A stretch of DNA of 64,000 nt from an uncultured Thiotrichales bacterium (lineage in GTDB: Bacteria; Pseudomonadota; Gammaproteobacteria; UBA4575): positions 16,041 through 80,040 of the forward strand of contig CAZAOO010000014.1 of NCBI GenBank assembly GCA_964486815.1, written 5' to 3'. The notes under the pieces were generated by a model. The model searched no databases and was not told the origin of the DNA. It worked only from the letters and a program-made list of their open reading frames with translations. Shown in pieces: positions 4,945 to 51,327 of the stretch. Position 1 is the stretch's first letter; every line of letters starts with the position of its first letter. The translations under genes and the position numbers were made by a program.

Positions 4945-6102
4945 ATGCTTACCATCAATTTTAAAGACGCAAAATATCCAGCATCCAAATTAACTCAATT
5001 ACCCATATTTAAATATTTCGTTGTAGCAGCGACATTGTTGCTGTTAACAGCTTGCGGCGGAGGCAGCGGAAGCGGCAGCAACTCAACTAGTGGGCCAGCC
5101 AAAATTAACTTCAGCGCCAATCCTCTATCAATAGCTGAAGGAGAATCTTCTGTTATCACTTGGCAAGCAGTAAACTCTGTTAGCTGTAGAGCGGAAGGTA
5201 ATTGGACCAGAGAAACCACCCCAACTGGACAGGTTTCTGTTGGACCCGATGTAACGACAACCTATACTATTTCTTGCCTAGGCAAAGAAGGCGGGCCGAT
5301 TACAGAATCCATCACGGTTACAGTAGACGGGTCTCCACCAACTCCCAGTCCTAATCTTACCTTAACCGCATCACCAACGAATATAAACGCCAATGAACCA
5401 TCTACAATACGCTGGTCAACAAGCAATGCAGACTCTTGTAGAGCACTAGGTGGATGGTCAAGTAAAACAAGTGTAAATAGCAGTCAGTTAATTGCCTCAA
5501 TACCGAGCACTACAACCTACAGTATGCGCTGCACGGGACCAGGTGGCTCCACTACGGAATCAATAAATGTCGTTGTTAACAGCATACCACCCACACCTGG
5601 GCCGACATTAGATATAACGGCTGATGATCTTATAATAGATTCAAATGCATCAACCACGATTCGATGGAATACAAATAATGCAGCTACTTGCTCAGCAGAT
5701 GGAGGATGGTCTTCCAGCAGCAGTGCTACTGGCCAACAATTAATTAACGCTATCCCAAGCACAACGACCTATAGTATGACCTGTATTGGCTCAGGTGGAA
5801 CAGTTACAGAATCCGTTATCATCACTATCAACCAAACCACTTCCGGTTCAGTTGAATTAAACTGGGATGCACCCTCAACCAATGCAGATGGCACCGCATT
5901 AACAGATCTAGCTGGTTACACAATTTACTATGGAACCAATCAAAATGATTTAAACCAAATTATTAACATTAATACTGCAGGCGTAACCACTTACGTAATA
6001 GATAATTTAGCTGCTGCTACTTATTATTTCTCTATGACTGCAAAAGATAATAGTAATAACGAAAGCATTCAATCTAACCTTGCCTCTAAAGTTATTAGAT
6101 AA
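4945..6102 (+). CDS. Lipoprotein with three Ig-like Cys-pair repeats and a C-terminal FN3 domain, a paralogue of the 3856-4809 product
   Basis: Lipobox LLLTAC followed by GGGSGSGS. Three repeats share the pattern W..(S/T)N..SC.A.GGW......TTTY(S/T)..C.G.GG...ES. The FN3-like end reads VELNWDAPSTNADGTALTDLAGYTIYYG...TYYFSMTAKDNSNNES. Confidence 0.75.
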   Translation: MLTINFKDAKYPASKLTQLPIFKYFVVAATLLLLTACGGGSGSGSNSTSGPAKINFSANPLSIAEGESSVITWQAVNSVSCRAEGNWTRETTPTGQVSVGPDVTTTYTISCLGKEGGPITESITVTVDGSPPTPSPNLTLTASPTNINANEPSTIRWSTSNADSCRALGGWSSKTSVNSSQLIASIPSTTTYSMRCTGPGGSTTESINVVVNSIPPTPGPTLDITADDLIIDSNASTTIRWNTNNAATCSADGGWSSSSSATGQQLINAIPSTTTYSMTCIGSGGTVTESVIITINQTTSGSVELNWDAPSTNADGTALTDLAGYTIYYGTNQNDLNQIININTAGVTTYVIDNLAAATYYFSMTAKDNSNNESIQSNLASKVIR

Positions 6103-6132
6103 GCAACTTAAACTTAATCACAAACATATAAA

Positions 6133-7776
6133 ATGATGACAATGAAAAAAATATTTGTTCTTCTAGCCTTAGTTATATTCTCTAGTCAAATCAATGCAGC
6201 CAATCTTGGTAGCAAGTCGGGAAAGATGTGGCACCCCTACCTAGAGTGGAGTGTCACTAATACCAGCTTCTCCGGCAATCCCTATGACGTAATTGCAACG
6301 GCAACTTTTTCACATTCTGGTAGCAGCAGTACACATAAAACAGAAATGTTCTATGCTGGTAATAACACCTGGAAATTTCGCTTTGCTGGTACGCGTACCG
6401 GTACATGGAATTTCACTACCAGCAGTTCTGATCCTGAATTAAATGGTCACACAGGCTCCGCTTCCATTAGTAGTAATGCAAATGCGACCGGCTTTCTAAC
6501 CAATAGTGGCAACAAGTTTGCTATGCAAAAGGGTGATAACGGCACACTTCAACCATATCGCTTAAATATATTCATGACAGATACTGGTGGATATATAACG
6601 GACGTAGCTTATTTTAGAAGTGGCACTGCAAACAAAGCACGTACCTATGCACGTGCAGCTAAAAACAATGGTATGAACGCAGTCTACCTTTCCGTGAACC
6701 ATAATTGGTTAAAGCTAGGCGCCAATAAGAACAGTGAACATAACAGTACCGATCCTGATCCAGATACTTATGCCGTGCTTGAACAGTTCATCACCACCGC
6801 AAAAAATGAAGGGGTGCATGTCTATCTATGGGCCTGGGGAGACGATGATCGCGATTGGTCACCTTCCGGACTTCCTGGTGGAATGAATGGAACGGTACAC
6901 AAAAGGATACAACGCTACACCGCAGCTCGACTAGGCCCTATTGCAGGCTGGTCTATGGGCCTAGGTTTTGATTTAGATGAATGGACCAGCTCCTCGTCCA
7001 GAAATGCATGGGCAACTTATCTACATAGTCGTTTTGGATGGGACCATTTATTGTCTACACGCGGCTTCAGGCTATCAGGCAACAATAATATTAATGGCTA
7101 TTCTAGCAGAGGTGATCAAGATGAAGTTTTAGACACACAAAGCAAAGGTGGTCCTCACACTTACAATGAGGGTTTAGCAGACCTTCAGAGTGATTTATCA
7201 AAACCAACCCTTTATGAAGAAAGGCACGTCTTCGAACGCGATAAAATTAAAGCAAGTTGGATAGGTTGGAAGACGACAACAAGCATGGATGGAACACGCA
7301 GATTGATATGGCGTAATACTCTGGCAGGAGGTATTGGGGGATGGTTTGGATTCTTTAATCAAAATCCTGTATTCGGCAGTGGTTCAGGCTACCCTAATCC
7401 TGAACAATTAGTTACCGCGACCACCTTTTGGGATGACAATGAACGCTTCTTAATGGACATGCGCGCAGCCAACAATTTAACGGATGGTATGGCTCTAAGA
7501 ACTAATAACAACAGAAATTTTGTTTTTTACAAGGAAAACACCTCATCAATACAGATGAATTTATCCAGCATGTCAGGCAACCAAAATGCCATAGCAGTGG
7601 ATACAAAAAGGTCTTATGGAGAAGTCGCTATAGGTAATCTAAACCCGGTTAACATGACTTGGGATGCACCCTATTCTTCTGATTGGGCCATCGCAGTAGG
7701 AAGCTTCAATGGAAACACACCTTCAACAGCGGACACAACTCCTCCTGCTCCTCCAAGAAACTTGATTGCTAGATAG
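6133..7776 (+). CDS. Secreted protein, a candidate glycoside hydrolase (DUF5060-like N-terminal beta-sandwich plus TIM-barrel-like region)
   Basis: Signal peptide KKIFVLLALVIFSSQINA. The N-terminus WHPYLEWSVTNTSFSGNPYDVIATATFSHSG...EMFYAGNNTWKFRFAGTRTGTWNF resembles the DUF5060 domain that precedes GH5-like catalytic domains. The assignment is from memory only. Confidence 0.4.
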   Translation: MMTMKKIFVLLALVIFSSQINAANLGSKSGKMWHPYLEWSVTNTSFSGNPYDVIATATFSHSGSSSTHKTEMFYAGNNTWKFRFAGTRTGTWNFTTSSSDPELNGHTGSASISSNANATGFLTNSGNKFAMQKGDNGTLQPYRLNIFMTDTGGYITDVAYFRSGTANKARTYARAAKNNGMNAVYLSVNHNWLKLGANKNSEHNSTDPDPDTYAVLEQFITTAKNEGVHVYLWAWGDDDRDWSPSGLPGGMNGTVHKRIQRYTAARLGPIAGWSMGLGFDLDEWTSSSSRNAWATYLHSRFGWDHLLSTRGFRLSGNNNINGYSSRGDQDEVLDTQSKGGPHTYNEGLADLQSDLSKPTLYEERHVFERDKIKASWIGWKTTTSMDGTRRLIWRNTLAGGIGGWFGFFNQNPVFGSGSGYPNPEQLVTATTFWDDNERFLMDMRAANNLTDGMALRTNNNRNFVFYKENTSSIQMNLSSMSGNQNAIAVDTKRSYGEVAIGNLNPVNMTWDAPYSSDWAIAVGSFNGNTPSTADTTPPAPPRNLIAR

Positions 7777-7817
7777 TTTCATAGCTTAGTAGGCCTAATA
7801 TTCAGCAGTTCAAATAG

Positions 7818-7855
7818 CAACGCAAAATATAGTCATGTTTTGCGTTGGCTTTTTT
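7818..7855 (+). terminator. Rho-independent terminator after the 6133-7776 gene
   Basis: A 10-bp stem, caacgcaaaa (7818-7827) pairing with ttttgcgttg (7838-7847), encloses a 10-nt loop. It is followed by gcTTTTTT (T-run 7850-7855). It lies between convergent genes. Confidence 0.7.
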
Positions 7856-7865
7856 ACTATTACAG

Positions 7866-8846
7866 TTAGCCTTGCTTAAGCTTTAAGCTTGGTTTGTTTG
7901 TTTCTTTGTTACCAATAAGAAATATCAACATTCCAACTAATAGCATTAATATTTCAAAACCGTAGCCTAGCAAACCTGCGGATACACTCACCTCACTAGC
8001 CACTCCTAGCTGGGCAAAGAAAAACAGTAGAGAAGTCTCTCGCACCCCAAGCCCTCCCAGCGAAATAGGCATAAATAAAAGCACGAATACCAGCGGGACT
8101 AGTACAAGAAAATATATAAAATCTAGCTTTACACCTAAAGATAAAAACAAATAGTAAAATACTATGCATCTACTGAACTGTATGAATAGTGATATCAAAG
8201 CTATCGGTAAAAATACTTTCTTCAACACTGATAGATCGGCCAAGGCATTTATTAGCTTTGATAGTTGCGTATTCCATTTCTCGCTGAAACTAATTTTTAT
8301 TTTGTTGCCATACGTCCTCAATACATACAAGCCGACCAAAGCACCAATGGTTAAAATTATGATGCTGATGGTTGTTATAATCTTGATTTCATACAGATAC
8401 TCTAAGGGAGGAGAAAAATAAGCCGCAACAAATGCAACAAAAAACATTGAATACAAACCGATAATCCTATCGATAATTATCGAACCTGCAACATCTGCAG
8501 TTTGCCCATGTTGCTTTGAAACCTGATAGCCCCTTACCAGATCTGTTCCCGCCCCACCTGGTGTAAGAAAGCCAGCAGGCATACTCACAAATATTATTTT
8601 AATTACTTTCAATAGACTTACAGGGATTGCATATGCCGAGAGTATTACTTTCCAGCGCAAAGAAATTAGTATTCGATTGAAAACAAACACGGCTAATGCC
8701 AATATAATCAGCCAATAGTTAGCTTGTCTTATAGTTAAAAACAAGTTTGATAAATCTATTTTTGTGTAAATAAATCCTAAAAATGCTAGCGTAAGCAATA
8801 CACGAATACTTTTACTCAAATGGAGTTTTGAAATGATATTTTTCAC
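7866..8846 (-). CDS. Flippase-like integral membrane protein (lysylphosphatidylglycerol-synthase TM-region / UPF0104 family)
   Basis: Polytopic membrane protein. The N-terminal KIDLSNLFLTIRQANYWLIILALAVFVFNRILISLRWKVIL is typical of this family. Confidence 0.6.
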   Translation of the reverse strand: MKNIISKLHLSKSIRVLLTLAFLGFIYTKIDLSNLFLTIRQANYWLIILALAVFVFNRILISLRWKVILSAYAIPVSLLKVIKIIFVSMPAGFLTPGGAGTDLVRGYQVSKQHGQTADVAGSIIIDRIIGLYSMFFVAFVAAYFSPPLEYLYEIKIITTISIIILTIGALVGLYVLRTYGNKIKISFSEKWNTQLSKLINALADLSVLKKVFLPIALISLFIQFSRCIVFYYLFLSLGVKLDFIYFLVLVPLVFVLLFMPISLGGLGVRETSLLFFFAQLGVASEVSVSAGLLGYGFEILMLLVGMLIFLIGNKETNKPSLKLKQG

Positions 8847-9200
8847 AGCTGTATTGGATGGAGCGTCAATCCTAAATGGTTAAAAAATATTTTTTAGTCT
8901 CAAAATTAAACTCGCATCTCAAAAGTTTGCCATGAGGATAGTTACGCCACCAAAATATAAAATCGTCAACAGTCTTGAGAAATTTTAAAATATAACAACT
9001 TTTCTAGCTAACACATTTGGACCAACCACTAGCGCCTAGCAAATAAATGATACCTATAAGAAAATAAATATATGAGGTTTAGTAGCCAAAATTTAGATCT
9101 GCCTCACGAAGCAATTCCAAATAAGCGATACCAGACGTTGGAATGTTATACAACAGCGCTTAAATTAACCGCCTAAGTTAAGAACGAACGTTTTATCGAA

Positions 9201-9728
9201 TTACCTTCTTGTAAAGATTACCTTGCCAGGATTACCTTGGACTATTGAATTTTGAGGAATTCTACCCGAAACTACTGTGTTAGGCGTTAAAATCGAACCG
9301 CTTCCTATTTCAGCCCCATCTAAAACAACACAGCCTGAACTTATCCAAACATCATTGCCGATAGTTATTCCCTTGGATATCTTTTCTTGCTTACACATCG
9401 GTATGTCTAACCGATCATAGCTATAGTTAATGCTGATAATTGAAGCACTCGGACCAATCATGCAATGATCACCAATCTCTATCCCTTTTTTATGTGCTGC
9501 AATAAATGAATTTGTTGCAATGCTTACATTTGCACCTATTCGTAGCGGCCCGTCAGAGGCCTTAACCTTGCAAAATGAACTAATTACTGAGCCCTTACCA
9601 ATACTCAAGTACGGTGTGATTTCTACTTCAGCTCTGGGACTTACTTTGCATTTAAATTTAAACCAAGCTTTAACTGTTACGAAAAAAGGAGGTTCCAAGA
9701 ATCTGCGAACTAATGCAACTGATTTCAT
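9201..9728 (-). CDS. Left-handed beta-helix (hexapeptide-repeat) acyl/acetyltransferase
   Basis: Hexapeptide repeats IGDHCMIGPSASII and ITIGNDVWISSGCVVLDGAEIGSGSILTPNTVVSGRIPQNSIVQGNPGKVI. The start overlaps the stop of the carrier-protein gene by 4 nt (9725-9728), suggesting translational coupling. Confidence 0.85.
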   Translation of the reverse strand: MKSVALVRRFLEPPFFVTVKAWFKFKCKVSPRAEVEITPYLSIGKGSVISSFCKVKASDGPLRIGANVSIATNSFIAAHKKGIEIGDHCMIGPSASIISINYSYDRLDIPMCKQEKISKGITIGNDVWISSGCVVLDGAEIGSGSILTPNTVVSGRIPQNSIVQGNPGKVIFTRR

Positions 9729-9958
9729 CCTGTAACAGAGTGATTATCTAACATTTTCTTAATATCTCTAACACTTAACATGCTTTGAATTTCCTGCATG
9801 GATAAGTTTATTTTATATTCTTCTTCTATAGCAGTAACCAATCTAAGATGATTCATAGAATCCCACAGACTAATAGTATCTGGATTATGCTCATCTCTGA
9901 CACCTGCTTCATCGATACCTAATACTTCTGATAGAATTTTTTCAACTGCTTTTGGCAT
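9725..9958 (-). CDS. Acyl/peptidyl carrier protein (DltC-like)
   Basis: The 77-aa acidic protein carries the phosphopantetheine-attachment context DTISLWDSMNHLRLVTAIEEEY (a DSM serine, as in DltC-type carriers). Confidence 0.8.
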   Translation of the reverse strand: MPKAVEKILSEVLGIDEAGVRDEHNPDTISLWDSMNHLRLVTAIEEEYKINLSMQEIQSMLSVRDIKKMLDNHSVTG

Positions 9959-10088
9959 AATACTCTTAACCTAAGTTATAAGATCTAAATGTAACATTTA
10001 CTTGCCATATGCTGAACCGACTTAGTTAACTTTTTGTTAATTATATACACTAAAAAACTAGATTTAGTTTGAAAAACATTAGATAACT

Positions 10089-10123
10089 TATTGTTTATGG
10101 GATTTTAAATCCCATAAACAATA
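10089..10123. promoter_or_regulatory. 35-bp perfect palindrome (17+1+17) in a divergent promoter region; candidate operator or hairpin
   Basis: tattgtttatgggattt-t-aaatcccataaacaata. The arms are exact reverse complements. It lies 131 bp from the carrier-protein start (9958) and about 145 bp from the formyltransferase start (10268). Confidence 0.5.
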
Positions 10124-10204
10124 TCGGTTAACTTGAAATCAAAAGCTATCTACCACTATTATTTATTAATACCTAATGCTTTTGTTTAGAGTGTATAATC
10201 TGCT

Positions 10205-10227
10205 TGTAACACTACAGTGTAACACTA
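10205..10227 (+). promoter_or_regulatory. Direct repeat TGTAACACTA-N3-TGTAACACTA just downstream of a consensus TATAAT (10194-10199)
   Basis: Exact 10-mers lie at 10205-10214 and 10218-10227 (13-bp period). TATAAT at 10194-10199 is a possible -10 element for the formyltransferase gene, but no good -35 element was seen. Confidence 0.35.
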
Positions 10228-10267
10228 GTTTTAATATTAGAAATAAATATTTATTTATTAAACTAAA

Positions 10268-11263
10268 GTGGTGAAAATGTTGAAGAAAAAAGTCGTTGTC
10301 ATTGGAAATGGGAAAATCGCTCTTGATTGTCTAAAAATTCTACAAGAGTACGATTATGAGCTATCAATTGTTCAGGTATTTTTTGAAACGAATGATCACT
10401 CAACCCCTTCTCGAATCAAAAATTTCTGCAGCAGACATAATATTAATTGTGCAGATGCAAATAGCCTAAATAATCAAATTACTGTCAACGAAATTGCAAG
10501 CCTGAATCCAGACATTATTTTCAACATAAATAATGGCCTAATATTGAGCAAATCTATAATAGACTCTACGAAAATAGGCGCCGTTAATTTCCATAATGGG
10601 CCTCTTCCACTATATCGCGGCCATGGTCATGCAGTTCTGTTTTGGGCTATTTTTAATGGTGAAAATCAATACGGCGTTACCTGGCATTTTATGGAACCTA
10701 GCGTTGATACTGGAGATATCATTGCGCAAAAGATATTTAAGATCCCTGAAAATGAAAATGCTTTGGGTTTAAATTTTAAGTGCATTATTGAGGGCATAAA
10801 TCTATTTGAAAAAGTTTTAAAGAATTTGTTATCTGGCAACTACAAACGCTCACAACAACAGGGCCAATCATCCAGATATTTATCAAAAAACGTCCCTAAC
10901 CAAGGCTACATTGATTTCAATTGGTCTTATGAAAAAATTGATCGTTTTTTGCGTGCAACTGACTTTAAGCCTTATTATAATTTATTTTCATATGCAAAAA
11001 TTAACTTTAACAGTAATAGCTTCATTGTTATTTCAGCAAAACCGCATAGTTTGAAAACACATAGTTATAAGGTAGGTGAAATAGTTGATATTACTGATGC
11101 TTACTTAAGAGTTGCAGCGAAAGATTCAATAATTGATATAACTAGGATTATGACCTTAGATAAAAACGAAATTTCTATAAAACAGTTAAAGCATGAGTTT
11201 CATATAGAGCCCAAAGCATTACTCAATTCCAATAATTATGACGACCTGAGAATAGCTTCATAG
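10268..11263 (+). CDS. Formyltransferase family protein (Fmt/ArnA-N-like) with a C-terminal domain
   Basis: VNFHNGPLPLYRG matches the (I/V)N.H.SLLP.YRG catalytic motif, with Asn and His retained. SVDTGDIIAQ supplies the conserved Asp. The ORF starts at GTG 10268, with an alternative ATG at 10277. Confidence 0.8.
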   Translation: MVKMLKKKVVVIGNGKIALDCLKILQEYDYELSIVQVFFETNDHSTPSRIKNFCSRHNINCADANSLNNQITVNEIASLNPDIIFNINNGLILSKSIIDSTKIGAVNFHNGPLPLYRGHGHAVLFWAIFNGENQYGVTWHFMEPSVDTGDIIAQKIFKIPENENALGLNFKCIIEGINLFEKVLKNLLSGNYKRSQQQGQSSRYLSKNVPNQGYIDFNWSYEKIDRFLRATDFKPYYNLFSYAKINFNSNSFIVISAKPHSLKTHSYKVGEIVDITDAYLRVAAKDSIIDITRIMTLDKNEISIKQLKHEFHIEPKALLNSNNYDDLRIAS

Positions 11264-12763
11264 TTGACTAAGTTTTTTCCTATCAATTTTTCCATTAAGA
11301 TTATGTGGCAACTCATTTAAGTATATTATTTCTCTAGGTATCATGTAATAAGCAAGCTTAGTTGCTAAGTGTTCTTCTAATTTCTGTTTCGTCGCAGCAT
11401 CACCAATCAAATACAACATTAAACTTTCACTATTACCCTTATTGGAAGACATGACGGCTGCCACATTCGAATGCCCAACATAATCACGAACAATATGCTC
11501 TATTTCACCTAATTCAACTCTATGACCATCAATTTTTACTTGATAATCGATTCTCCCACAGTGAATATAATCTCCTTGATCATTGATAAATACGCGATCT
11601 CCAGTTCGATAAAAGGTTTCATCGCTATGATCATCAAATTTAAAAAAAGCATCTTTAGTCTTATCAACATCATTCCAATATTGATCAGTAACCTGTAACC
11701 CAGCAAGGCAAAGCTCTCCTTCTTGACCGATTGCAACAGGTTTTTTATTTGCATCAATTATTTCAACTCTCATACCTGGAAACGGCTTGCCAATAGGTAA
11801 AATACCGCGCACAGATTCATCAGCTGAATTATTTGAAAAGTTATAGGCAATGCAGTAAACCGTTGCCTCTGTAGGACCATAAGCATTTTGAATTACTGCA
11901 TTAGGAACGCAATTAGACCATGCATGGGCAAGCTTATATGGCAACGGCTCACCACAAAAAATACTATGTCGTATTGTGTCAAATTTTAACTCATTAAAAT
12001 ACCGCTCTAAGTACGACAAAACTGAGGGCACCATTGGTGCAACGGTTATTTTATAACGCTCCAAATAATCTACGATATTTAAATATGAGATTCCCTTATC
12101 AGGAACCACATAACAGCATGCGCCTACACATAAAGGTATAAAGAAAGTCATAATAGAAAAGTCAAATGTCAATTGAAACATTTGCAAAAATCTGTCTTCT
12201 TCACAAAAATCATATAACCCGCTCTCTAAATTAATAGCAATGAATTTATTTAAATTTTTATTGTATATTGGCACTCCTTTTGGAGTACCAGTACTACCAG
12301 AGGTAAATAATAAATAACATAATTTTTCATCATCAATGGGTGGACAATCTAAATCCAAATCAGAAGCTGCTAATGCATTTGTATTTATTATTTTGAGCTC
12401 GTGATTTGTGTTGTTTTTTAATCCATCCAACAACTGATGATTTTTAGAAGCGAGAATTACGTTTACGTTTGCATCATTGATAATTGTAGCATTACGGTCT
12501 TGAGGGTTGTTTTTACTTATAGGAACATATGCTGCACCTGTTGAAAGAATTGCTAAAATGGAAGCATAGGTGTATACATCATCGCCCGTTAGCACACCAA
12601 TCGGATCATTCTTACAAAATTTTTCATGCAAAATGAGTTCTTTTATGGTTTTAGCAATTCTAGTGAACTCTTTATAACTATAGTATTGGCCATTAACATG
12701 AATAGCTTTTCTTTCCGGAAAAGCTTCCGTTATTTTAATAATTTTATGAATTACAGAGATCAT
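11258..12763 (-). CDS. Adenylate-forming enzyme, an amino-acid-type adenylation protein (DltA / NRPS A-domain-like)
   Basis: Core motifs LLFTSGSTGTPKGV (A3), QLTFDFSIM (A4, with the Asp that anchors an alpha-amino group), NAYGPTEATV (A5), YRTGD (A7), GRIDYQVKIDGHRVELGEIE (A8) and NGKIDRKKL (A10). Confidence 0.85.
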   Translation of the reverse strand: MISVIHKIIKITEAFPERKAIHVNGQYYSYKEFTRIAKTIKELILHEKFCKNDPIGVLTGDDVYTYASILAILSTGAAYVPISKNNPQDRNATIINDANVNVILASKNHQLLDGLKNNTNHELKIINTNALAASDLDLDCPPIDDEKLCYLLFTSGSTGTPKGVPIYNKNLNKFIAINLESGLYDFCEEDRFLQMFQLTFDFSIMTFFIPLCVGACCYVVPDKGISYLNIVDYLERYKITVAPMVPSVLSYLERYFNELKFDTIRHSIFCGEPLPYKLAHAWSNCVPNAVIQNAYGPTEATVYCIAYNFSNNSADESVRGILPIGKPFPGMRVEIIDANKKPVAIGQEGELCLAGLQVTDQYWNDVDKTKDAFFKFDDHSDETFYRTGDRVFINDQGDYIHCGRIDYQVKIDGHRVELGEIEHIVRDYVGHSNVAAVMSSNKGNSESLMLYLIGDAATKQKLEEHLATKLAYYMIPREIIYLNELPHNLNGKIDRKKLSQL

Positions 12764-12995: not shown

Positions 12996-13994
12996 ATGAT
13001 AAATTTTTGGGAAAATAGAAAAGTCCTAGTAACAGGAGCCGGTGGCTTCACAGGCAGCAATTTGTGTAATAAGTTAGCTAGTGAAAATGCTCAAGTCACT
13101 GCATTTTTACGTTCCAATGGATCAAAACGTGAGCTACATCCATCGATAGAAGTGGTCACTGGCGATTTAACCAAGCCTCAAGATTGTATTCGAGCGATGC
13201 AAGGAATAGATACTGTTTTTAACGTTGCTGCGGTATTTAGAAATGTGAAAGGTTCTGAACAACAGCTTAGGGATATCCATGTGCATGCTACAGAGAACCT
13301 GATCAGAGCTGCAAAAAAAGAAGGTTGTCGCCGATTTGTGCATACCAGCACTATGGGTGTGCACGGACATGTAAAAGATGGCCCAGGAAATGAAGAGACT
13401 GAGTTTTCTCCTGGCGATGCCTACCAAGAAACTAAAGTTGAAGGCGAATTATTAGCTTTTAAACTGGCAAAAGAACTAGACTTAGAATTAACTGTTATTC
13501 GACCTTGTGGGATTTATGGGCCAGGTGATACCCGTTTTCTGAAATTGGTAAAGCCGATTAAGAAACGTCAATTCTTCATGATTGGCAGTGGCAATACTCA
13601 TTACCACTTCGTTTATATCGATGATTTAGTCAACGGCTATATGTTAGCTGGTGAAAAACCCGGTGCAGTGGGAGAAGCTTTTTTAATTGGTGGCAAAGAT
13701 GCGCCAACACTGAACGAACTGGCTAGAAAAATTGCTGAAATTCAAAATGCTCCTGCGCCAAAATTCAAGATTCCGGTATGGCCAATCTACTATGCTGGTT
13801 GGGCGTGTGAAATAATCTTTGGCTTGTTTAAAATTGAGCCGATATTGCATCGTCGTAGAGTTGCGTTTTTTACCAAAAATAGAGATTTTACAATTGCTAA
13901 AGCTCAAAACTTATTAGGCTATGAGCCCAAAGTCGGACTGGAGCAAGGGCTCACCTCTTTAATCAACTGGTATGAAAGTGAAGGTTTGATTTAA
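12996..13994 (+). CDS. NAD-dependent epimerase/dehydratase (extended SDR)
   Basis: VLVTGAGGFTGSNL Rossmann motif, and YQETK as the YxxxK catalytic motif. Confidence 0.85.
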   Translation: MINFWENRKVLVTGAGGFTGSNLCNKLASENAQVTAFLRSNGSKRELHPSIEVVTGDLTKPQDCIRAMQGIDTVFNVAAVFRNVKGSEQQLRDIHVHATENLIRAAKKEGCRRFVHTSTMGVHGHVKDGPGNEETEFSPGDAYQETKVEGELLAFKLAKELDLELTVIRPCGIYGPGDTRFLKLVKPIKKRQFFMIGSGNTHYHFVYIDDLVNGYMLAGEKPGAVGEAFLIGGKDAPTLNELARKIAEIQNAPAPKFKIPVWPIYYAGWACEIIFGLFKIEPILHRRRVAFFTKNRDFTIAKAQNLLGYEPKVGLEQGLTSLINWYESEGLI

Positions 13995-14022: not shown

Positions 14023-15594
14023 CTAGCGATGCTGACTTAATCTTGCATGAATTTTTTCTGATTGTGATTGCGTCTCATCATTATCACTATAAATATTAAG
14101 TTTTTCTGACAAATCTTTAATGATTTCATCCAAATCATTCGTTGCTAACAAACCGCGTACGGCCAAATTATTTCTACGTAAAACATAATCTTCTATTTTC
14201 AGTACCATTTCTGTACCTATCGAGCGCTTGATATGTTGTTTTTGATTTTTACGATACACAGAAACGATTTCTTCTTCGGAAACACTAGCATCAAGTGACA
14301 AGTCATCAACAACTGAAAGCTCGTCTCTTAGCTCTTCAATTGCATAGCTCGGCAAATCTTTTACTTCTATCTTTAAACTTTTAAATATTTTTCTAACAAC
14401 TTGTTGTGCTGTGCTACGTGCAGTGGTGTATTTAACCCCCACAACCGAAAATAGGTTTTGAATATCATCCTGTTCTGCATGATCAATCAAATTTGTATGA
14501 TGAGCACGAGAATTATTATCATCTTCAGCAGGTGTAAAGCCAGCATAGACATACCTAATATCTTTTAAGGACAATCTTAAAGAAGGATAAGCTTCATTTA
14601 TTTCTTCTATAAAGCCTGGTAATTCATTCGCAACATTAGTATCTAAAGGCGCTTCTATTTGATGTTCTGATTCATGTTTTGGTTCATGTTTAAAATGGGC
14701 TGTACCGATTACGGTTTTATTTAACCATGGTGTAAAAAAATAAACGCGTTTACTAGAGCCCACTACAGCATCCGAAGCACGTTTGCTCTTTACACCAAAG
14801 GCAAAGTCTTTATTAATACTATCAACCACTATATTAAAATTCTTCGACAAAGGCTGATGCTTATATTTATCAGCTTTTAATTTGAATTTGAGCAATTTAT
14901 ACGCCCATGGTCCTGTAGCATTCACAACTACTGAAGCATGAATATCAAATTCCCGTCCTGTCACTTCATCCTTTGCACACACACCAATGGCTTTATCCGA
15001 AGTAAGCAATATTTCTTGCACACTTACATAGTTAGCCAAACACAAACCTCGGTTATAAGCGTCCTTGAGCAATTCAATATGCAAGCGATCTGCATCTACG
15101 ATTTGACCGTCATACCAGACGGCTCCACCGCTAATATTACTACCATCAATATCCGGTAATAAATTCTGGCACTCTGCTTTGGATATCATATGACCGTTTG
15201 GATATGCTCTTTGTCGAGACTGTAGCGCAGCTACCGAATTATGCATGCTTACCGCAGCTCCCAAAGCAAATGGTCCTCTAGATCCATAGCCATATGTAGG
15301 CAAAACAAACTTCATAGGTTTAATTAAACGCTTTGATATCTGCATCCACATTTCACGTTCGCGCACAGATTCATAGACACGCTTAAAATTTAAATGTTGA
15401 AAATAGCGGATACCGCCATGAATTACTTTAAGCGAGTTATGTGAAGTAGCGCTACCAAAATCGCCAGCTTCAATTAGACAAACCTTTAATCCTCGCAGCA
15501 CCGCATCTCGCGCGATAAATATGCCATAGATCCCTGCACCTATCACCAGAACATCGAATTTGGTATGTTCTAACTGATCAAGGTCGCGCTGCAT
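14023..15594 (-). CDS. FAD-dependent oxidoreductase, glycerol-3-phosphate dehydrogenase/oxidase (GlpD)-like
   Basis: The N-terminal FDVLVIGAGIYGIFIARDAVLRGLKVCLIEAGDFGSATSHNSLKVIHGGIRYFQH closely follows the GlpD-type dinucleotide-binding and signature region. Confidence 0.75.
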   Translation of the reverse strand: MQRDLDQLEHTKFDVLVIGAGIYGIFIARDAVLRGLKVCLIEAGDFGSATSHNSLKVIHGGIRYFQHLNFKRVYESVREREMWMQISKRLIKPMKFVLPTYGYGSRGPFALGAAVSMHNSVAALQSRQRAYPNGHMISKAECQNLLPDIDGSNISGGAVWYDGQIVDADRLHIELLKDAYNRGLCLANYVSVQEILLTSDKAIGVCAKDEVTGREFDIHASVVVNATGPWAYKLLKFKLKADKYKHQPLSKNFNIVVDSINKDFAFGVKSKRASDAVVGSSKRVYFFTPWLNKTVIGTAHFKHEPKHESEHQIEAPLDTNVANELPGFIEEINEAYPSLRLSLKDIRYVYAGFTPAEDDNNSRAHHTNLIDHAEQDDIQNLFSVVGVKYTTARSTAQQVVRKIFKSLKIEVKDLPSYAIEELRDELSVVDDLSLDASVSEEEIVSVYRKNQKQHIKRSIGTEMVLKIEDYVLRRNNLAVRGLLATNDLDEIIKDLSEKLNIYSDNDETQSQSEKIHARLSQHR

Positions 15595-15621: not shown

Positions 15622-16377
15622 TTATTTTTGGCAAAATGCCATTAAATGATGACCTGTTCTTTGAATCACGGATTTGGGAAGAACATTGTACGCACCGACA
15701 AAAATTTTGTTATATAACAAAGCCTTCAATCCACTATGCACCTTGGTCGCAACCGGAAATCTTTCCGGGACAATCTTCTTCTGAGAAAAAGGTGACAACA
15801 TATTCTCGAATTCCTTGATCGAGTACAAATAAAAGACCGGTGCTTCTAGATGGTCGATCTCCACTTTCATGAGCTTATGCATCGCATTTAACCAAGATCT
15901 ACGATTAACCGTCATCAAGATCGCTTCTCCACCTGGTTTTAATACTCGTGCAATTTCATCAATCATCTTTTGAGGGTCAGGAGTAAAATGCAAAACGGTA
16001 TGACAATAGACCATATCAAAACTATTATCTTCAAATTCCAGTGCTTCACCGTCCATCACATGAAACTCTCCGACTAAATTTCGTAATGCAAAATTACTTT
16101 TTGCAAGTTCAATTGAGTGCTCAGCAAGATCAATACCGACAATATTCGCACCGCCTCTAGCAAATCTAGTAAGATCGTTGCCTGTACCACACCCTACATC
16201 AAGAATTTTTTTGCCTTTATAACCCGAAAAATTAACCACTTTAGGCAGATAATGAAGTTTTTCAAACCTGTACTCTTCAATTTCTAAAAAAAACTCCAGC
16301 GTACCGGCTGGACTTTTGGCCACTTTCCAATCATGGATATGATTATTCCAAAATTCACGAACGGCTTCTTTACTCAT
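15622..16377 (-). CDS. Class I SAM-dependent methyltransferase
   Basis: Motif I ILDVGCGTGNDL, plus post-I and motif II regions (IVGIDLA, FDMVYCHTVLHF). Confidence 0.85.
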   Translation of the reverse strand: MSKEAVREFWNNHIHDWKVAKSPAGTLEFFLEIEEYRFEKLHYLPKVVNFSGYKGKKILDVGCGTGNDLTRFARGGANIVGIDLAEHSIELAKSNFALRNLVGEFHVMDGEALEFEDNSFDMVYCHTVLHFTPDPQKMIDEIARVLKPGGEAILMTVNRRSWLNAMHKLMKVEIDHLEAPVFYLYSIKEFENMLSPFSQKKIVPERFPVATKVHSGLKALLYNKIFVGAYNVLPKSVIQRTGHHLMAFCQK

Positions 16378-16401: not shown

Positions 16402-17580
16402 CTATTTATCTAAACCAAGTGCATCATAAAGTTTTTTAACTTTATGCATATAAATCGCATCTGAATATTTTTCTTCGGCCAATTGGCTGGCTGCTTCAAC
16501 TTTTGCAACACCTAACTCTGGTTTGTTTATTAACTCATTCATGCCTTCACTAATACCTGCCGCATCCGGTGAAACGAGCATTGCAACATCCTTATTCAAC
16601 ACTTGCGTATGGGTTAGCATATCTGTGGCAATGATCGGCTTGCCGGTACGTAAGTATCCATATATTTTTAATGGCGTGTTCGTCCCCGTACATCTGGGAG
16701 AAACAATCATATCAGCGGCTTCAATATAAGACGGAATTTCAGATGGGTGTACAGTGCCTGTGAACAATATTGATCCATCAATGGCTAATTTTATTGCAAG
16801 CTCTTTGTACTTATCAACCTGCTCTTCACGCCCACCTACCATAATTAAAAATGCTTCAGAATATTTATTCAGTGTTAACTTAAATGCTTCAAATAAAATA
16901 TCAATACCTTGATATTTCTCAAACGTGCCGGTATAGAGAATGATTTTTTTGTTTTGCAGAGCATGCTTCTGCCTTATATCCACATTTTTATTAGAAAATA
17001 CTTTGCTATCATCAGCAGTGTTCTCAATTAATTCATGGGGTGTATCTAAACCAAAACTCTCAACCAAATCTGCAAGCTCAGGACAAATAGTAATGGTTGC
17101 ATCACAACTCGTCAGCACTTTGTTTTCAAGATATTCAAATATGTTTTTAAAAAAACCAAGGTTAAAGGAGTTGAAGTTAGCTAACTGTTGAGGAAGGCTG
17201 CTATGCATATCATAGACATGCCGCATATTATATTTTTTCGCCAAACGCATTGCAAAAAAGGCAGCTTCTTCATGCGAATGAATAACATCGTATTTTTTCT
17301 GTTTCAGCAACTTTCTGGTTGTTAAGAAAAGACTAATATCAAGAAATATTTTCTGGATTGATGGGCCAATCTTAATATCTTTGATACATCCCCAATTACC
17401 TGATCTGATAATTTTCAAACCAACAAAGCCAACATCCTCACCAAAGGGATAGGTCACCATGTCTACTTCATAACCCATCTCACACAACGCGCGTACGCGG
17501 TGCAGCACACTAAAGGGGGTCCCACGCGCTCTGAAATAAGGCTGCGGGGTCAGCATCAGAACTCGATTTTTAAGCATCAA
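16402..17580 (-). CDS. GT4-family (GT-B) glycosyltransferase
   Basis: The N-terminus VLMLTPQPYFRARGTPFSVLHRVRAL and the overall GT-B layout support the call. It possibly belongs to one of the PEP-CTERM/exosortase-associated sugar transferase families (memory only). Confidence 0.75.
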   Translation of the reverse strand: MMLKNRVLMLTPQPYFRARGTPFSVLHRVRALCEMGYEVDMVTYPFGEDVGFVGLKIIRSGNWGCIKDIKIGPSIQKIFLDISLFLTTRKLLKQKKYDVIHSHEEAAFFAMRLAKKYNMRHVYDMHSSLPQQLANFNSFNLGFFKNIFEYLENKVLTSCDATITICPELADLVESFGLDTPHELIENTADDSKVFSNKNVDIRQKHALQNKKIILYTGTFEKYQGIDILFEAFKLTLNKYSEAFLIMVGGREEQVDKYKELAIKLAIDGSILFTGTVHPSEIPSYIEAADMIVSPRCTGTNTPLKIYGYLRTGKPIIATDMLTHTQVLNKDVAMLVSPDAAGISEGMNELINKPELGVAKVEAASQLAEEKYSDAIYMHKVKKLYDALGLDK

Positions 17581-17940: not shown

Positions 17941-19167
17941 ATGACTTACAGCCCTCTAGATAACTTTGAGATCCGAGATAATGTGTTATGCATTTCCAGC
18001 CAGCGCATAACCGACCTTATTAAGTCAGGCATAAATCCACCCTGCTATATTTATTCTAAACAAATAGTAGATAAAAAAATAAACCTACTTAGAGACACGC
18101 TTCCAAAGTCGATAAAAATACACTATTCCATCAAAGCCAACCCCTTGCCCGAGCTGGTGAACCACATTAAAGATCAAATTGATGGCCTTGAGGTATCCTC
18201 ATTAGCCGAAATGAAAACAGCACTTGCCACAGGGATAGATAGTCAAAATATTTGCCTGACGGGGCCTGGGAAAAGCTACGAAGAACTTGAAATTGCAATA
18301 AAAAACAAAATTGTTATAAGTGCAGAATCAAGTTTAGAACTTCATAGACTTGATGAAATCGGTAGTGAAATTATGCGTAAACCATCTGTTCTGGTACGTA
18401 TAAACCCACCTTTCACACAAAAAAGAGCGGGTATGAAGATGGCAAGTGGATCAAGTCAATTTGGCATTGATTCTGAGGAAGTGCCAGAACTTATAAAATG
18501 GATTGAAAGCTCGTGTATAGATTTTCATGGCTTTCATGTTTACAGCGGATCACAAATTCTGGACATAGAAGCTCTGAGTTATTCCCAAAGCAAAACTTTT
18601 GAACTAATTAATGAACTTGCATCCTTATGCAAGCAACCTATCAAAACTATCAATATCGGTGGTGGCTTTGGTATTCCATATTTTTCAAAACATCTACCCT
18701 TAGATTTGAACTCAGTATCAAAAAATTTGGAAAGATTAATTCCCACCTTAGAGTCAAGCAATTTTAGACAACCCATTACTCCTATCATAGAACTAGGGCG
18801 CTATATTGTCGGTGAATCTGGCATTTATCTATCAGAAGTCGTCGACAAAAAGATATCTAGAGGAAAAACATATTTGGTTACAAATGGTGGCATGCATCAT
18901 CAGTTAGCTGCATCAGGCAATTTAGGACAAAAAAATAGAAAGAACTTCCCTATCTGCATTGCAAATAAAATTGATACTTCCGAAAAAGAAATAGTGAATA
19001 TAGTTGGAAAGCTATGCACACCACTAGATATCCTCGGGGAAGAAGCAGAAGTAAGTCGAGCTGAAGTTGGAGACTTGGTAGCTATATTTCAATCAGGAGC
19101 ATACGGCTATACTGCAAGTCCTATTAATTTTCTTAGCCAGCCATTTGCAAGTGAAATAATTCTATAA
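17941..19167 (+). CDS. Fold-type III PLP-dependent decarboxylase (Orn/DAP/Arg decarboxylase family)
   Basis: HYSIKANP (PLP lysine), GGGFGIPY, ELGRYIVGESG, GKLCTPLD and QSGAYG motifs are all present. It resembles the family I recall being named pyridoxal-dependent decarboxylase, exosortase A system-associated. Confidence 0.85.
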   Translation: MTYSPLDNFEIRDNVLCISSQRITDLIKSGINPPCYIYSKQIVDKKINLLRDTLPKSIKIHYSIKANPLPELVNHIKDQIDGLEVSSLAEMKTALATGIDSQNICLTGPGKSYEELEIAIKNKIVISAESSLELHRLDEIGSEIMRKPSVLVRINPPFTQKRAGMKMASGSSQFGIDSEEVPELIKWIESSCIDFHGFHVYSGSQILDIEALSYSQSKTFELINELASLCKQPIKTINIGGGFGIPYFSKHLPLDLNSVSKNLERLIPTLESSNFRQPITPIIELGRYIVGESGIYLSEVVDKKISRGKTYLVTNGGMHHQLAASGNLGQKNRKNFPICIANKIDTSEKEIVNIVGKLCTPLDILGEEAEVSRAEVGDLVAIFQSGAYGYTASPINFLSQPFASEIIL

Positions 19168-19168
19168 G

Positions 19169-21199
19169 CTAATTACTGTTGATCTTATAAACATCGATTG
19201 TTTTATCTATATTTGAGTAAACAATATTATCTTTATACTTAGCTCGAATATACTTTTCTATTTCAAGATCATTTGACCTTCGATTTGCTGAAAAATTAAT
19301 TAACCAAATATTTTTATCATTTTCCAATAATTCATATAATTGCTGCTTATCTGAGATAAGATTTGCATTTGTCCAGAATTCTTTTTTTCCATCACAAGCA
19401 GATAAACCCACGAACTCTTCTTCATTTTTATACCAAAACATATAATCTAATTGATCCAAATAATGTGCGACTACAGGAACATAAATAGAGACCACCACAT
19501 CACCGCTTTTAAGATTATTATTAATATATTCTCCAGGCGTTCTGTAATCTTTTCGAGGATAGTATTGCATATATTTAGGCATACTATAATTTTGCCTAAA
19601 ATTTATCTCAGCTGCCTGAACATTGATAATATGTTTAAAATTATAATCTTCAAATATATAAAGAGAACCGAAGATTAACGTTGGCAAAACAAGCATGTAT
19701 AGCACTTTATTTTTTTTGAACACTTCTAATAAATATACAACTGCTATGGAAAATAAAATCAAAACTAGTGGGTATATAAAAAAAGTATATTTAATTTGTG
19801 AATACGTAGTTTGTAAAATAGATACAGCAAGAAATAGGACTAAAACAATACCGGCTAGAAAACATATTCTCTTATCTAATTCCTTATATCTAATCAAGCA
19901 AAATAAGGATGTTACAATAATTACTGAAGCCATTACGATAGACTGAATAGGCATAGCCTGAAACCATAGCCGGGCTACTTTGTAGTAAAAATCTGGGTAT
20001 TTTAAAAAATATTTTGGCATTTCTGAAATACCATCATAATTAGAAAAGTAAAAAATCAGATGCACAAATAAAATCAAAAGCGTACTAACTAAAAATAATA
20101 ATAAATTATTATTAGTTAGTATTGAAATAATCGGAGAGCTTTTTTCATCTGATAACTTTGAATAAAATAACAATATTAAAATCAAAAGACATAGCCAGAG
20201 AAATAACATATGCAGAAGGGAGGCTAGAAGTATTGAAAGTAATAATGCATACAATAGAAAATTAACTCTAGATGATTTTACAAATCTAACAAAAAAATAT
20301 AAGCCTGCAAAAACCAGCAGTACAATAGGAATTAAATAGAATTGATTTACATATATCATCCCCCACATTGAGTCAGACACTTGGATAGGAAAAGAGGAAA
20401 AAATCTGTGGGCTAATTTCTTTCAAACTAGATGCAGTAGTTGATACTGTAGCGTCATCAATAAAATTAGATGGCATGCCCGTAACTACTGACTCATCATT
20501 TAAAGATACATTACCAGAGTTGACTGCTCTAAAGTCTGTAAGAGTGTATTTCATATAAACGATAGGTAACGAGATTAATAACAAAATATTAGTTTTATTT
20601 ATTCGTATAAACCCTAAAATAAATGGAAGGAAATTTAGAGCAAGTAAAAATATTGCCCCCTCATATAAAAATATTGATAAAAATGACATGCCAAACAAAA
20701 CATATTGAGATTTACTTGAGGGCTCATAAACACTTTTAATGAGATACAAAATATAGATTAAAAACACGAGCTGGAATGGACTATACATTCTTGCAAATCT
20801 TGCAAACTCTATTTCCCAAACAGATAGCATAAACAAGATAATCGCGATAAGCGCAACATATATACCGCCAAATTTTTTAGCAATTAAATAAACTGGAATT
20901 ACTGCTAATAAAGATGTAATTGATGGCAATATACGGGCAGCAAATTCTATAGACTCAAATATTTTTAATGGGAATATAGATAAATATTGCAATAAAATAC
21001 CACGAACATAATATCCACCACACTCAAGCTGAGGAACACCGAAGGCTAAAGTTTTTAATGCAGCCGTTGTTAAATAATATTCATCTTCTGCAAGTGGCCA
21101 CATTCCTAAGGAAACAAACCTGGCATAGCAGCCAAACAAAAAACTTACGAATACAAAACACAACAACAAAAAGCTTCTAAAATTATACTGATAAAGCAT
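19169..21199 (-). CDS. Large polytopic GT-C-fold glycosyltransferase candidate (ArnT/PMT-like)
   Basis: 676 aa with more than 10 predicted TM helices. An acidic motif sits in the first extracytoplasmic loop (WPLAEDEYY), as in GT-C enzymes. A C-terminal soluble domain of about 170 aa follows. Confidence 0.5.
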   Translation of the reverse strand: MLYQYNFRSFLLLCFVFVSFLFGCYARFVSLGMWPLAEDEYYLTTAALKTLAFGVPQLECGGYYVRGILLQYLSIFPLKIFESIEFAARILPSITSLLAVIPVYLIAKKFGGIYVALIAIILFMLSVWEIEFARFARMYSPFQLVFLIYILYLIKSVYEPSSKSQYVLFGMSFLSIFLYEGAIFLLALNFLPFILGFIRINKTNILLLISLPIVYMKYTLTDFRAVNSGNVSLNDESVVTGMPSNFIDDATVSTTASSLKEISPQIFSSFPIQVSDSMWGMIYVNQFYLIPIVLLVFAGLYFFVRFVKSSRVNFLLYALLLSILLASLLHMLFLWLCLLILILLFYSKLSDEKSSPIISILTNNNLLLFLVSTLLILFVHLIFYFSNYDGISEMPKYFLKYPDFYYKVARLWFQAMPIQSIVMASVIIVTSLFCLIRYKELDKRICFLAGIVLVLFLAVSILQTTYSQIKYTFFIYPLVLILFSIAVVYLLEVFKKNKVLYMLVLPTLIFGSLYIFEDYNFKHIINVQAAEINFRQNYSMPKYMQYYPRKDYRTPGEYINNNLKSGDVVVSIYVPVVAHYLDQLDYMFWYKNEEEFVGLSACDGKKEFWTNANLISDKQQLYELLENDKNIWLINFSANRRSNDLEIEKYIRAKYKDNIVYSNIDKTIDVYKINSN

Positions 21200-51285: not shown

Positions 51286-51327
51286 GTATTCATTTTGAAA
51301 ATTATATAATAAAGCTGATATAAAAAT

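Follow-up and report, generated by a model that had tools for sequence, protein, structure and literature searches.

Four adjacent genes in a 64,000-nucleotide stretch of DNA from an uncultured Thiotrichales bacterium (contig CAZAOO010000014.1; the whole stretch is called the window here) encode a left-handed beta-helix (LbH) transferase, a small carrier protein, a free-standing formyltransferase (FT) and a stand-alone adenylation (A) enzyme. Together they probably form a dissociated initiation module of the nonribosomal peptide synthetase (NRPS) type, made up of formylation, adenylation and peptidyl carrier protein parts (F-A-PCP), with the LbH transferase as the predicted off-loading enzyme. 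This interpretation, put forward in a preliminary description of the sequence, is supported by the type of the A enzyme, by the co-occurrence of the genes in other genomes, by the tie between FT and the A enzyme and by the existence of F-A-PCP-LbH fusion proteins. Every refuting condition named in that description that lends itself to computation was examined, with outcomes in favour of the interpretation. All four open reading frames (ORFs) were confirmed, and each has a significant family match in profile searches (Table 1). Domain identities, catalytic residues, gene linkage and gene fusions, as described below, are read directly from the sequence.

Adenylation enzyme

All the expected core motifs of an adenylation domain (TSGSTG, FDFS, NAYGPTE, YRTGD, GRIDYQVK and GKIDRK) were located in the A enzyme. 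With 319.4 bits, it exceeds the cutoff (317.4) of TIGR01733, the model for amino acid adenylation domains. Its best scores are with amino-acid adenylation, DltA and NRPS models, fatty-acyl ligases being far below cutoff; the enzyme is thus of the amino acid rather than the fatty acid type, as had been proposed. Asp201 aligns with PheA Asp235, the anchor of the alpha-amino group, and with DltA Asp197. Lys492 in GKIDRK, placed by motif and not by alignment, is the A10 lysine equivalent to PheA Lys517. Both residues are invariant in 120 homologues of the A enzyme with 41-62% identity. The equivalog cutoffs of DltA are missed (302 versus 476 for NF003417 and 295.5 versus 559.85 for TIGR01734).

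The pocket code was extracted by alignment to the structure-database sequences of PheA (1AMU) and Bacillus cereus DltA (3DHV), with position 517 assigned by motif. It reads DFMPICAVYK in the window enzyme, DLMTLCTVAK in DltA, DLHLFCLIAK in the 4OXI chain and DAWTIAAICK in PheA, the nearest codes being those of DltA and AlmE. Over the pocket region, the best match among solved structures is the 4OXI chain, which we take to be the glycine ligase AlmE. In its first half, the pocket resembles those of DltA and AlmE, the Cys equivalent to DltA Cys269 included, while the bulky aromatic residue at code position 331 presumably resembles the canonical glycine code. From these two features we predict a very small alpha-amino acid, about the size of glycine or alanine, as the substrate.

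Two other assignments of the A enzyme were rejected. It is not the exosortase-associated ligase of TIGR03098, for which it scores 166.2 bits against a cutoff of 592.35. Nor is a special kinship likely with LgrA, which is the top solved-structure match over the whole protein (343 bits): 4OXI, FscH and DltA are comparable or better in the pocket region, and the LgrA score is probably a sum, since two matched stretches are listed and LgrA holds two A domains.

Gene neighbourhoods in other genomes

No close relatives came up in a genome scan that used the A protein alone; the LbH family alignment succeeded as an anchor and gave 80 species-representative genome loci, whose neighbours were scored by tblastn. 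These loci belong to Gammaproteobacteria, Acidobacteriota, Nitrospirota, Cyanobacteria, Alphaproteobacteria, Betaproteobacteria, Myxococcota, Gemmatimonadota, Fibrobacteria and Omnitrophota. In 69 of the 80, the carrier gene is found within 3 kb of the LbH gene, usually directly upstream and on the same strand. A gene for an FkbH-domain protein, whose identity is firm (TIGR01686, 296 against a cutoff of 146.65), is found within 6 kb in 50 loci, typically just upstream of the carrier gene. The A enzyme is present at six loci and never together with FkbH. FT occurs at five of the six loci with the A enzyme and at none of the 74 without it. The probabilities obtained for the mutual exclusion of A and FkbH (Fisher p = 0.002) and for the association of FT with A (p = 2.5e-7) are only indicative, because the loci are phylogenetically non-independent. 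Ligases that lack the alpha-amino Asp (L079 and L071) have no FT at their loci.

The LbH proteins of A-type loci are scattered over at least five separate groups, in each of which the nearest neighbours are of the FkbH type, and the carriers of both types of locus have the motif WDS[ML]NHL in common. This scatter, the shared motif and the carrier-LbH linkage mark carrier-LbH as the conserved core, on which FkbH and A(+FT) loaders have been repeatedly swapped. The FkbH-domain protein would be the usual loader and A+FT an alternative one. The window fits a carrier-LbH module with an A-type loader: A is followed by the carrier and then by LbH, with an ATGA overlap between the last two.

The four genes do co-occur outside this genome, a point on which the preliminary description had made its interpretation depend. 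Loci found with the A enzyme as an anchor (A enzymes 43-60% identical) have a largely shared set of GT4 glycosyltransferase, methyltransferase, FAD oxidoreductase, short-chain dehydrogenase/reductase (SDR), A, FT, carrier, LbH and LPG_synthase_TM genes; the gene order varies, and the methyltransferase and LPG_synthase_TM genes are not present in every locus. At L156, carrier, LbH and FT are encoded as a single unit, all in the same direction. At another A-anchored locus, L153, the A gene is followed by a GNAT gene, beside the carrier and an LbH of the same family (48% identical), and there is no FT; the GNAT gene thus occupies the place expected for FT.

A metagenome scan with FT as the anchor yielded 66 loci. 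An A ORF adjoins FT in 24 of them, and more partial A matches were seen where contigs end. The typical arrangement is a collinear A-FT-carrier operon, in many cases with a gene for an AAC(3)-like N-acyltransferase (Antibiotic_NAT, 89 bits) after it. Most of the FT-only loci with long flanks show a different, housekeeping-looking context and were read by eye as ordinary Fmt genes. The operons with the AAC(3)-like gene, found at L098 (e.g. 5463-9034), L102, L123 and L129 and often accompanied by a DUF4910/DUF2172 protein, could represent a second putative family of formyl-aminoacyl transfer systems with another off-loading enzyme.

Some related arrangements were also observed. At L154 (7001-14670), a relative of the window A enzyme is encoded in a row of A, GNAT, carrier, unknown protein, SGNH/LysM, GNAT and MBOAT genes. 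By its gene content, this is a putative Dlt-like trans-membrane aminoacylation system outside Firmicutes; the contig was taken as Bacteroidota from the Por secretion tail on a neighbouring protein. The FkbH-carrier-LbH arrangement is found in cultured sphingomonads, namely Sphingobium fuliginis DSM 18781 (L074), Sphingobium sp. R-21 (L076) and S. bisphenolivorans (L086), and in the methylotroph Methylobacillus sp. MM3 (L063). The locus of a Sphingomonas metagenome-assembled genome (L071) was grouped with the FkbH-carrier-LbH loci of sphingomonads. Sphingans of the gellan type carry O-glyceryl esters, for which we know of no assigned transferase. The FkbH-carrier-LbH module is a candidate glyceryl transferase system for sphingans.

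Gene fusions

Pfam scans revealed single chains of about 1340-1380 aa in which Formyl_trans, AMP-binding, PP-binding and LbH domains are joined (P0267 of 1379 aa, P0273 of 1378 aa, and P0395). Such scans of the LbH-family matches also found A-PCP-LbH chains (P0269, P0271, P0268 and P0259), and there are LPG_synthase_TM-LbH chains (P0264, P0288 and P0303). An assembly artefact was rejected as the origin of the F-A-PCP-LbH proteins: the 90% cluster of P0267 has six members from JGI and ENA, each from one contig and all of 1379 aa. The cluster of P0273 has two members. Over the full length of the domain, the fused LbH domains share 40-46% identity with the window LbH; between the fused F domains and the window FT, the identity is 29-31%. 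The A domains of the fusions are of the ordinary NRPS type.

At L157, a phosphopantetheinyl transferase gene directly precedes the fused gene. The fused gene shares the neighbourhood of the window cassette itself, with Asn-synthase-like, LPG_synthase_TM, methyltransferase, GT4, FAD-oxidoreductase and SDR genes on its flanks. Among the codes of the fused A domains (P0267, P0273 and P0269), we take DILQLG[CV]VW to match the glycine code and DLTKIGEVG to match the asparagine code; if so, different fused members would transfer different amino acids.

Formyltransferase

The catalytic motifs noticed earlier, VNFHNGPLPLYRG and SVDTGD, are both present in FT, and Asn107, His109 and Asp147 are invariant in nine orthologues with 30-52% identity. 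Both Formyl_trans_N and Formyl_trans_C exceed the Pfam gathering score, and the protein remains below the equivalog cutoffs of ArnA (135.5 versus 777) and Fmt (126.1 versus 201.5). FT is genetically or physically coupled to A-PCP in three ways: it occurs only with the A enzyme among the 80 LbH-anchored loci, it belongs to A-FT-carrier operons, and related F domains are part of F-A-PCP-LbH fusions.

Carrier and LbH transferase

The attachment Ser of the carrier is present in the motif reported for it, and PP-binding is above the gathering score. This Ser is found in all aligned carriers but one (L082, with WTS). The 4-nt overlap between the carrier and LbH genes is real. The LbH family is tight and unnamed, its members from Gammaproteobacteria and Acidobacteriota being 58-80% identical; when 1.84 billion representative proteins were searched with the family profile, 79 representatives were found at E <= 1e-30. 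NCBIfam has no model that specifically names the LbH or the carrier.

The likeness of the LbH to LpxA and LpxD, suggested in the preliminary description, did not hold. The cutoffs of these models are missed (44 versus 207 and 36.5 versus 242.5 for LpxD; 31.7 versus 226 for LpxA), and the nearest characterised relatives form the maltose/galactoside acetyltransferase-like clade. The catalytic His of the maltose-acetyltransferase clade (His118 in 3HJJ, in the string TATHP) aligns to LbH Tyr102, which is invariant in the family. An AlphaFold model of the LbH was of acceptable quality (pLDDT 78); Foldseek comparison of this model with the PDB gave no significant match, only generic beta-helices.

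Membrane partner and companion genes

The LPG_synthase_TM gene stands directly downstream of the LbH gene in the window. It takes the same position at L001, L002 and L066 and recurs in many other loci. This position and the LPG_synthase_TM-LbH fusions suggest a lipid-linked acceptor and later translocation. The membrane protein is the probable partner that handles the lipid-linked acceptor or product. The architecture of the fusions parallels that of MprF, in which a flippase-like domain is combined with an acyltransferase. An LPG_synthase_TM-LbH fusion at L158 (8001-9608) lies beside an SDR gene, with no carrier or loader in view.

The SDR, FAD-oxidoreductase, methyltransferase and GT4 set flanks the cassette at L001, L002, L006, L007 and L156, as well as the fused gene at L157 and the FkbH-type loci. 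The products of these companion genes could either tailor the carrier-bound unit or make the acceptor. In the methoxymalonyl-acyl carrier protein (ACP) pathway, it is glyceryl-ACP that is tailored.

Proposed mechanism and its alternatives

We infer the chemical steps, the amino acid, the acceptor and the order of formylation and transfer from the features described above. The A enzyme would use ATP to load a very small alpha-amino acid (glycine or alanine size) as a thioester onto the phosphopantetheine arm attached to the Ser of the 77-aa carrier. FT would then cap the free alpha-amine with a formyl group from N10-formyl-tetrahydrofolate, most likely while the amino acid is still on the carrier, as the fused F domain of LgrA does. 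The LbH transferase would bind the acyl-pantetheine arm as acyl-CoA is bound by CoA-dependent hexapeptide transferases. It would pass the N-formyl-aminoacyl group on to a sugar, at a hydroxyl or an amine; the sugar is probably part of a lipid-linked intermediate at the cytoplasmic face of the membrane. LPG_synthase_TM may handle or flip the modified lipid-linked product for incorporation into an exopolysaccharide (EPS) of the XrtA type. Carrier-LbH would then be the ancient core of a widespread acylation module, in which an FkbH loader would make a glyceryl-S-carrier, and in which the A+FT loader would replace the hydroxy acid by an N-capped amino acid. An N-formyl-L-alanyl group has been reported for the O2 O-antigen of Vibrio anguillarum (PMC10059132), so the predicted class of product exists in nature.

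In a wider and more tentative reading, FT could be the first free-standing, trans-acting NRPS-type F enzyme combined with LbH off-loading from an acyl-carrier. Carrier-LbH might form the core of a so far unrecognised system that spans phyla and adds glyceryl groups (with FkbH) or N-formyl- and N-acetyl-aminoacyl groups (with A+FT or A+GNAT) to lipid-linked glycans, i.e., the missing enzymology of such decorations. We regard this possibility with some reserve.

Several observations weigh against the split F-A-PCP interpretation. FT is encoded on the strand opposite to A, carrier and LbH. Among solved structures, its closest kin have nucleotide sugars or tRNA as substrates: the ArnA formyltransferase domain and WbkC come first (84 bits each), then Fmt, and the LgrA F domain reaches about 30 bits. 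Some A-type loci have no FT (L005) or no LbH (L004). The pocket code is identical to no characterised code, which makes the amino acid a guess. The LbH family has no invariant His, the catalytic His of its clade being absent, and a search for LbH residues that separate A-type from FkbH-type loci found none convincing. With the His missing and no residue tracking the loader, the sequence of the LbH accounts neither for its predicted chemistry nor for a tolerance of both glyceryl and formyl-aminoacyl donors. Finally, the group on the carrier could also be a substrate of the companion SDR, FAD-oxidoreductase and methyltransferase, and the product would then be a different one.

The order of events could also be different. 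The LbH might first move the free aminoacyl group, and FT might then formylate the aminoacyl-sugar or aminoacyl-lipid in the manner of ArnA or WbkC. The nearest solved FT relatives indeed work on the amines of nucleotide sugars, the window FT is transcribed apart from carrier-LbH, and the co-occurrence of A and FT fits either order equally. However, the F domain is N-terminal to A-PCP in the single chains, as in linear gramicidin synthetase, and A-FT-carrier operons exist without LbH. A free aminoacyl thioester would be labile, so capping it early would be chemically sensible. Formylation after the transfer is therefore judged unlikely, and formylation on the carrier is preferred.

Much less probable is an FT that is independent of the module and formylates a nucleotide-activated or lipid-linked amino sugar of the EPS, like ArnA or WbkC, with A, carrier and LbH acting separately. 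Such a role would agree with ArnA and WbkC as the best solved matches and with the opposite strand of the gene; furthermore, GT2 enzymes, two CE4 deacetylases and a flippase-like protein in the locus recall the Arn pathway. Yet the 80 LbH-anchored genomes show no FT without A, though many of them share GT2, GT4 and LPG_synthase_TM genes, and no sugar aminotransferase was found among the ORFs scanned (1-57.8 kb of the window). The recurring A-FT-carrier operons and the F-A-PCP-LbH fusions also speak against it. The fused proteins provide a control for the ArnA-like match: the F domain of P0273 also best matches ArnA (77 bits; about 23 bits for LgrA-F). This domain must serve its own A-PCP, so an ArnA-like best match is uninformative about a nucleotide-sugar substrate, and the ArnA/WbkC ranking is weak as a counter-point. 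The objection that the preliminary description had raised against itself, an FT of the ArnA/WbkC kind, is neutralised in this way.

The least probable explanation concerns the LbH, which might be an ordinary acetyl-CoA-dependent O-acetyltransferase of the EPS, the carrier-bound product going to another enzyme or into a small molecule or lipid that has nothing to do with the EPS. Acetyl-CoA transferases of the maltose, galactoside and WbbJ types are indeed the nearest characterised relatives of the LbH, and none of its residues follows the loader type. Against this stand the proximity of the carrier gene (within 3 kb in 69 of 80 genomes, which represent many phyla), the 4-nt overlap in the window, the A-PCP-LbH and F-A-PCP-LbH fusions, and the replacement of the canonical catalytic His by an invariant Tyr. 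Off-loading of an N-formyl-aminoacyl group from the carrier by the LbH thus remains the preferred explanation.

Organization of the locus

The positions of the cassette and of the other features are given in Table 1. The adjacency of the four genes noted in the preliminary description stands, with the correction that FT alone is on the plus strand; the four genes are adjacent yet do not form one operon. FT diverges from carrier-LbH over a 309-bp spacer and converges with the A gene, the two 3' ends overlapping by 6 nt. Compared with orthologues, ATG at 10277 is a likelier start of FT than GTG at 10268.

Table 1. Features of the window (positions in nucleotides of the window)
Feature	Position	Strand	Description
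LPG_synthase_TM membrane protein (MprF-type, flippase-like)	7866-8846	-	PF03706 126 bits; TIGR00374 88 bits
LbH transferase	9201-9728	-	175 aa; Pfam Hexapep 57 bits, cutoff 27
Carrier protein	9725-9958	-	77 aa; PP-binding 22.5 bits, cutoff 20.8; Ser motif WDSMNHL
Near-perfect palindrome, 31 bp	10091-10121		TTGTTTATGGGATTTTAAATCCCATAAACAA; divergent carrier/FT intergenic region
Formyltransferase (FT)	10268-11263	+	331 aa; two domains, Fmt/ArnA-like N and C; Formyl_trans_N 64 bits, Formyl_trans_C 38 bits
Adenylation (A) enzyme, stand-alone	11258-12763	-	501 aa; AMP-binding 211 bits
SDR	12996-13994	+	Family match
FAD oxidoreductase, glycerol-3-phosphate dehydrogenase type	14023-15594	-	Family match
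S-adenosylmethionine (SAM) methyltransferase	15622-16377	-	Family match
GT4 glycosyltransferase	16402-17580	-	Family match
Exosortase-EpsI gene	46744-48276		Marker of the XrtA/PEP-CTERM EPS locus

The palindrome between the carrier and FT genes occurs once in the window, with a chance expectation of 0 matches. It may be a candidate operator for a regulator of both divergent transcription units. The tail-to-tail overlap of A and FT is also present at L001 (11507-11512), L002 (11513-11518) and L007 (8496-8501), with 6 nt in each case, and at L006 (11517-11527), with 11 nt. Its conservation among loci with A enzymes of only 43-60% identity may point to coupled or antisense regulation.

The 50 kb around the cassette make up a genuine XrtA/PEP-CTERM exopolysaccharide locus, as had been described. 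TIGR03007, TIGR03027 and TIGR03013 are all above cutoff in the window, and the locus contains a chain-length determinant, an export protein and a priming glycosyltransferase, each above its NCBIfam cutoff. An Rfam scan of the window gave no match. In the ORF at 2-1510, described earlier as an AT3-SGNH acyltransferase, only the Acyl_transf_3 domain was detected, and an SGNH domain was not found. The DltB/DltD-like role suggested for this gene was rejected, since it is not conserved with the cassette (a homologue in one of 86 related loci).

A number of other genes of the EPS locus may be mentioned. An exosortase-associated pyridoxal phosphate (PLP)-dependent decarboxylase of the ornithine/diaminopimelate (Orn/DAP) type is encoded at 17941-19167 (+) (TIGR03099, 494 bits against a cutoff of 478). 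Its usual partner, the TIGR03098 ligase, was not found among the window ORFs scanned. At L001 (2118-4945), a TIGR03098-like ligase gene adjoins the decarboxylase gene; it is separate from and additional to the A enzyme gene. A second adenylate-forming enzyme of the window EPS locus (36074-37423, -) is PaaK/F390-synthetase-like and below all cutoffs. The ORFs at 19169-21199 (-), 22916-24538 (+), 31936-33150 (-) and 38738-39913 (-), of 391-676 aa, have no Pfam or NCBIfam match.

At 50011-52335 (+), the gene for a TviB-like UDP-GlcNAc 6-dehydrogenase (628 bits against a cutoff of 592) is followed by a gene of the SDR epimerase/dehydratase family, which is below all cutoffs (110 versus 760 for the TviC model). 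The EPS polymer probably contains 2-acetamido uronic acids. Two CE4 polysaccharide deacetylases are encoded at 24718-25737 (+) and 34300-34947 (-). De-N-acetylation of the polymer by these enzymes could be a source of free amines as acyl acceptors.

Significance

Bacterial O-antigens, capsules and exopolysaccharides often bear N-formyl- or N-acetyl-aminoacyl groups and glyceryl groups. To our knowledge, the enzymes that attach the N-acyl-aminoacyl and glyceryl groups are largely unknown. The cassette and its relatives offer a concrete candidate for them, a carrier-dependent LbH transferase with plug-in loaders. A search of the available literature found no paper on this cassette, on FkbH- or A-carrier-LbH modules in polysaccharide loci, or on exosortase-associated ligase/carrier genes.

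If the proposal is true, the F-A-PCP logic of NRPS extends to the decoration of glycans, and a hexapeptide transferase uses an acyl-carrier donor outside lipid A synthesis. Formylation would make the substituent neutral, unlike the cationic D-alanine of Dlt and glycine of Alm, and a different biological purpose is implied. Possible purposes of a neutral substituent are polymer properties, phage evasion and immune evasion. The fused F-A-PCP-LbH proteins, one of them with a neighbouring phosphopantetheinyl transferase, are single-protein targets for biochemistry. The carrier-LbH system is widespread and experimentally tractable, and it would fill a gap in polysaccharide biochemistry.

Comparison with known systems

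By sequence comparison, the cassette appears to work like Dlt, AlmEFG and the LgrA module, yet it is a member of none of them. It misses the cutoffs of DltA, ArnA, Fmt, LpxA/D and TIGR03098, it lacks MBOAT and DltD, and its LbH is without the His of the clade. With the initiation module of LgrA, the cassette shares the formyltransferase, the amino-acid adenylation and the carrier, and the fused relatives of the window proteins keep the F-A-PCP order. The F domain of LgrA formylates the carrier-bound amino acid before its transfer. Unlike LgrA, the window parts are separate proteins, FT retains the Fmt-type C-terminal domain and resembles LgrA-F only remotely, and an LbH transferase takes the place of the condensation domain as the partner; the predicted product would decorate a glycan or lipid and start no peptide.

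DltABCD likewise has a stand-alone A enzyme that loads a small amino acid on a small carrier for the decoration of a surface polymer. The codes of the B. cereus DltA and the window enzyme are identical at five of ten positions, the equivalent of DltA Cys269 among them. The window ORFs that were scanned include neither an MBOAT (DltB) nor a DltD-like gene. In contrast to DltABCD, a soluble LbH would make the transfer, and formylation is predicted to leave the amine uncharged.

In Vibrio cholerae, AlmEFG consists of the glycine-carrier ligase AlmE, the carrier AlmF and a cytoplasmic acyltransferase that uses the aminoacyl-carrier on lipid A (PMC4278540). This is a Gram-negative parallel to the window cassette, with a stand-alone ligase, a carrier and a transferase acting on a glycolipid. 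However, AlmG belongs to the lysophospholipid acyltransferase family and not to LbH, and the amine stays cationic in Alm, which lacks a formyltransferase. The window system, in turn, sits in an exosortase EPS locus.

In NodABFE and in butirosin BtrH/I/J/K, a dedicated carrier delivers an acyl or aminoacyl group to a sugar amine. The amine is exposed by a CE4 deacetylase in the Nod system, and a PLP decarboxylase acts on the carrier-bound amino acid in butirosin synthesis. The window locus likewise has CE4 deacetylases and a PLP decarboxylase of the Orn/DAP type. Unlike the window transferase, NodA and BtrH have folds other than LbH, and neither system involves formylation.

The duality of loaders has a precedent in zwittermicin synthesis. 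There, ZmaN-ZmaD provide hydroxymalonyl-ACP through an FkbH-type enzyme and glyceryl-S-ACP, and ZmaJ-ZmaH provide aminomalonyl-ACP through a stand-alone A domain and aminoacyl-S-ACP. The zwittermicin and other FkbH systems feed polyketide synthases, whereas the carrier-bound unit of the modules described here would go to an LbH transferase in polysaccharide loci.

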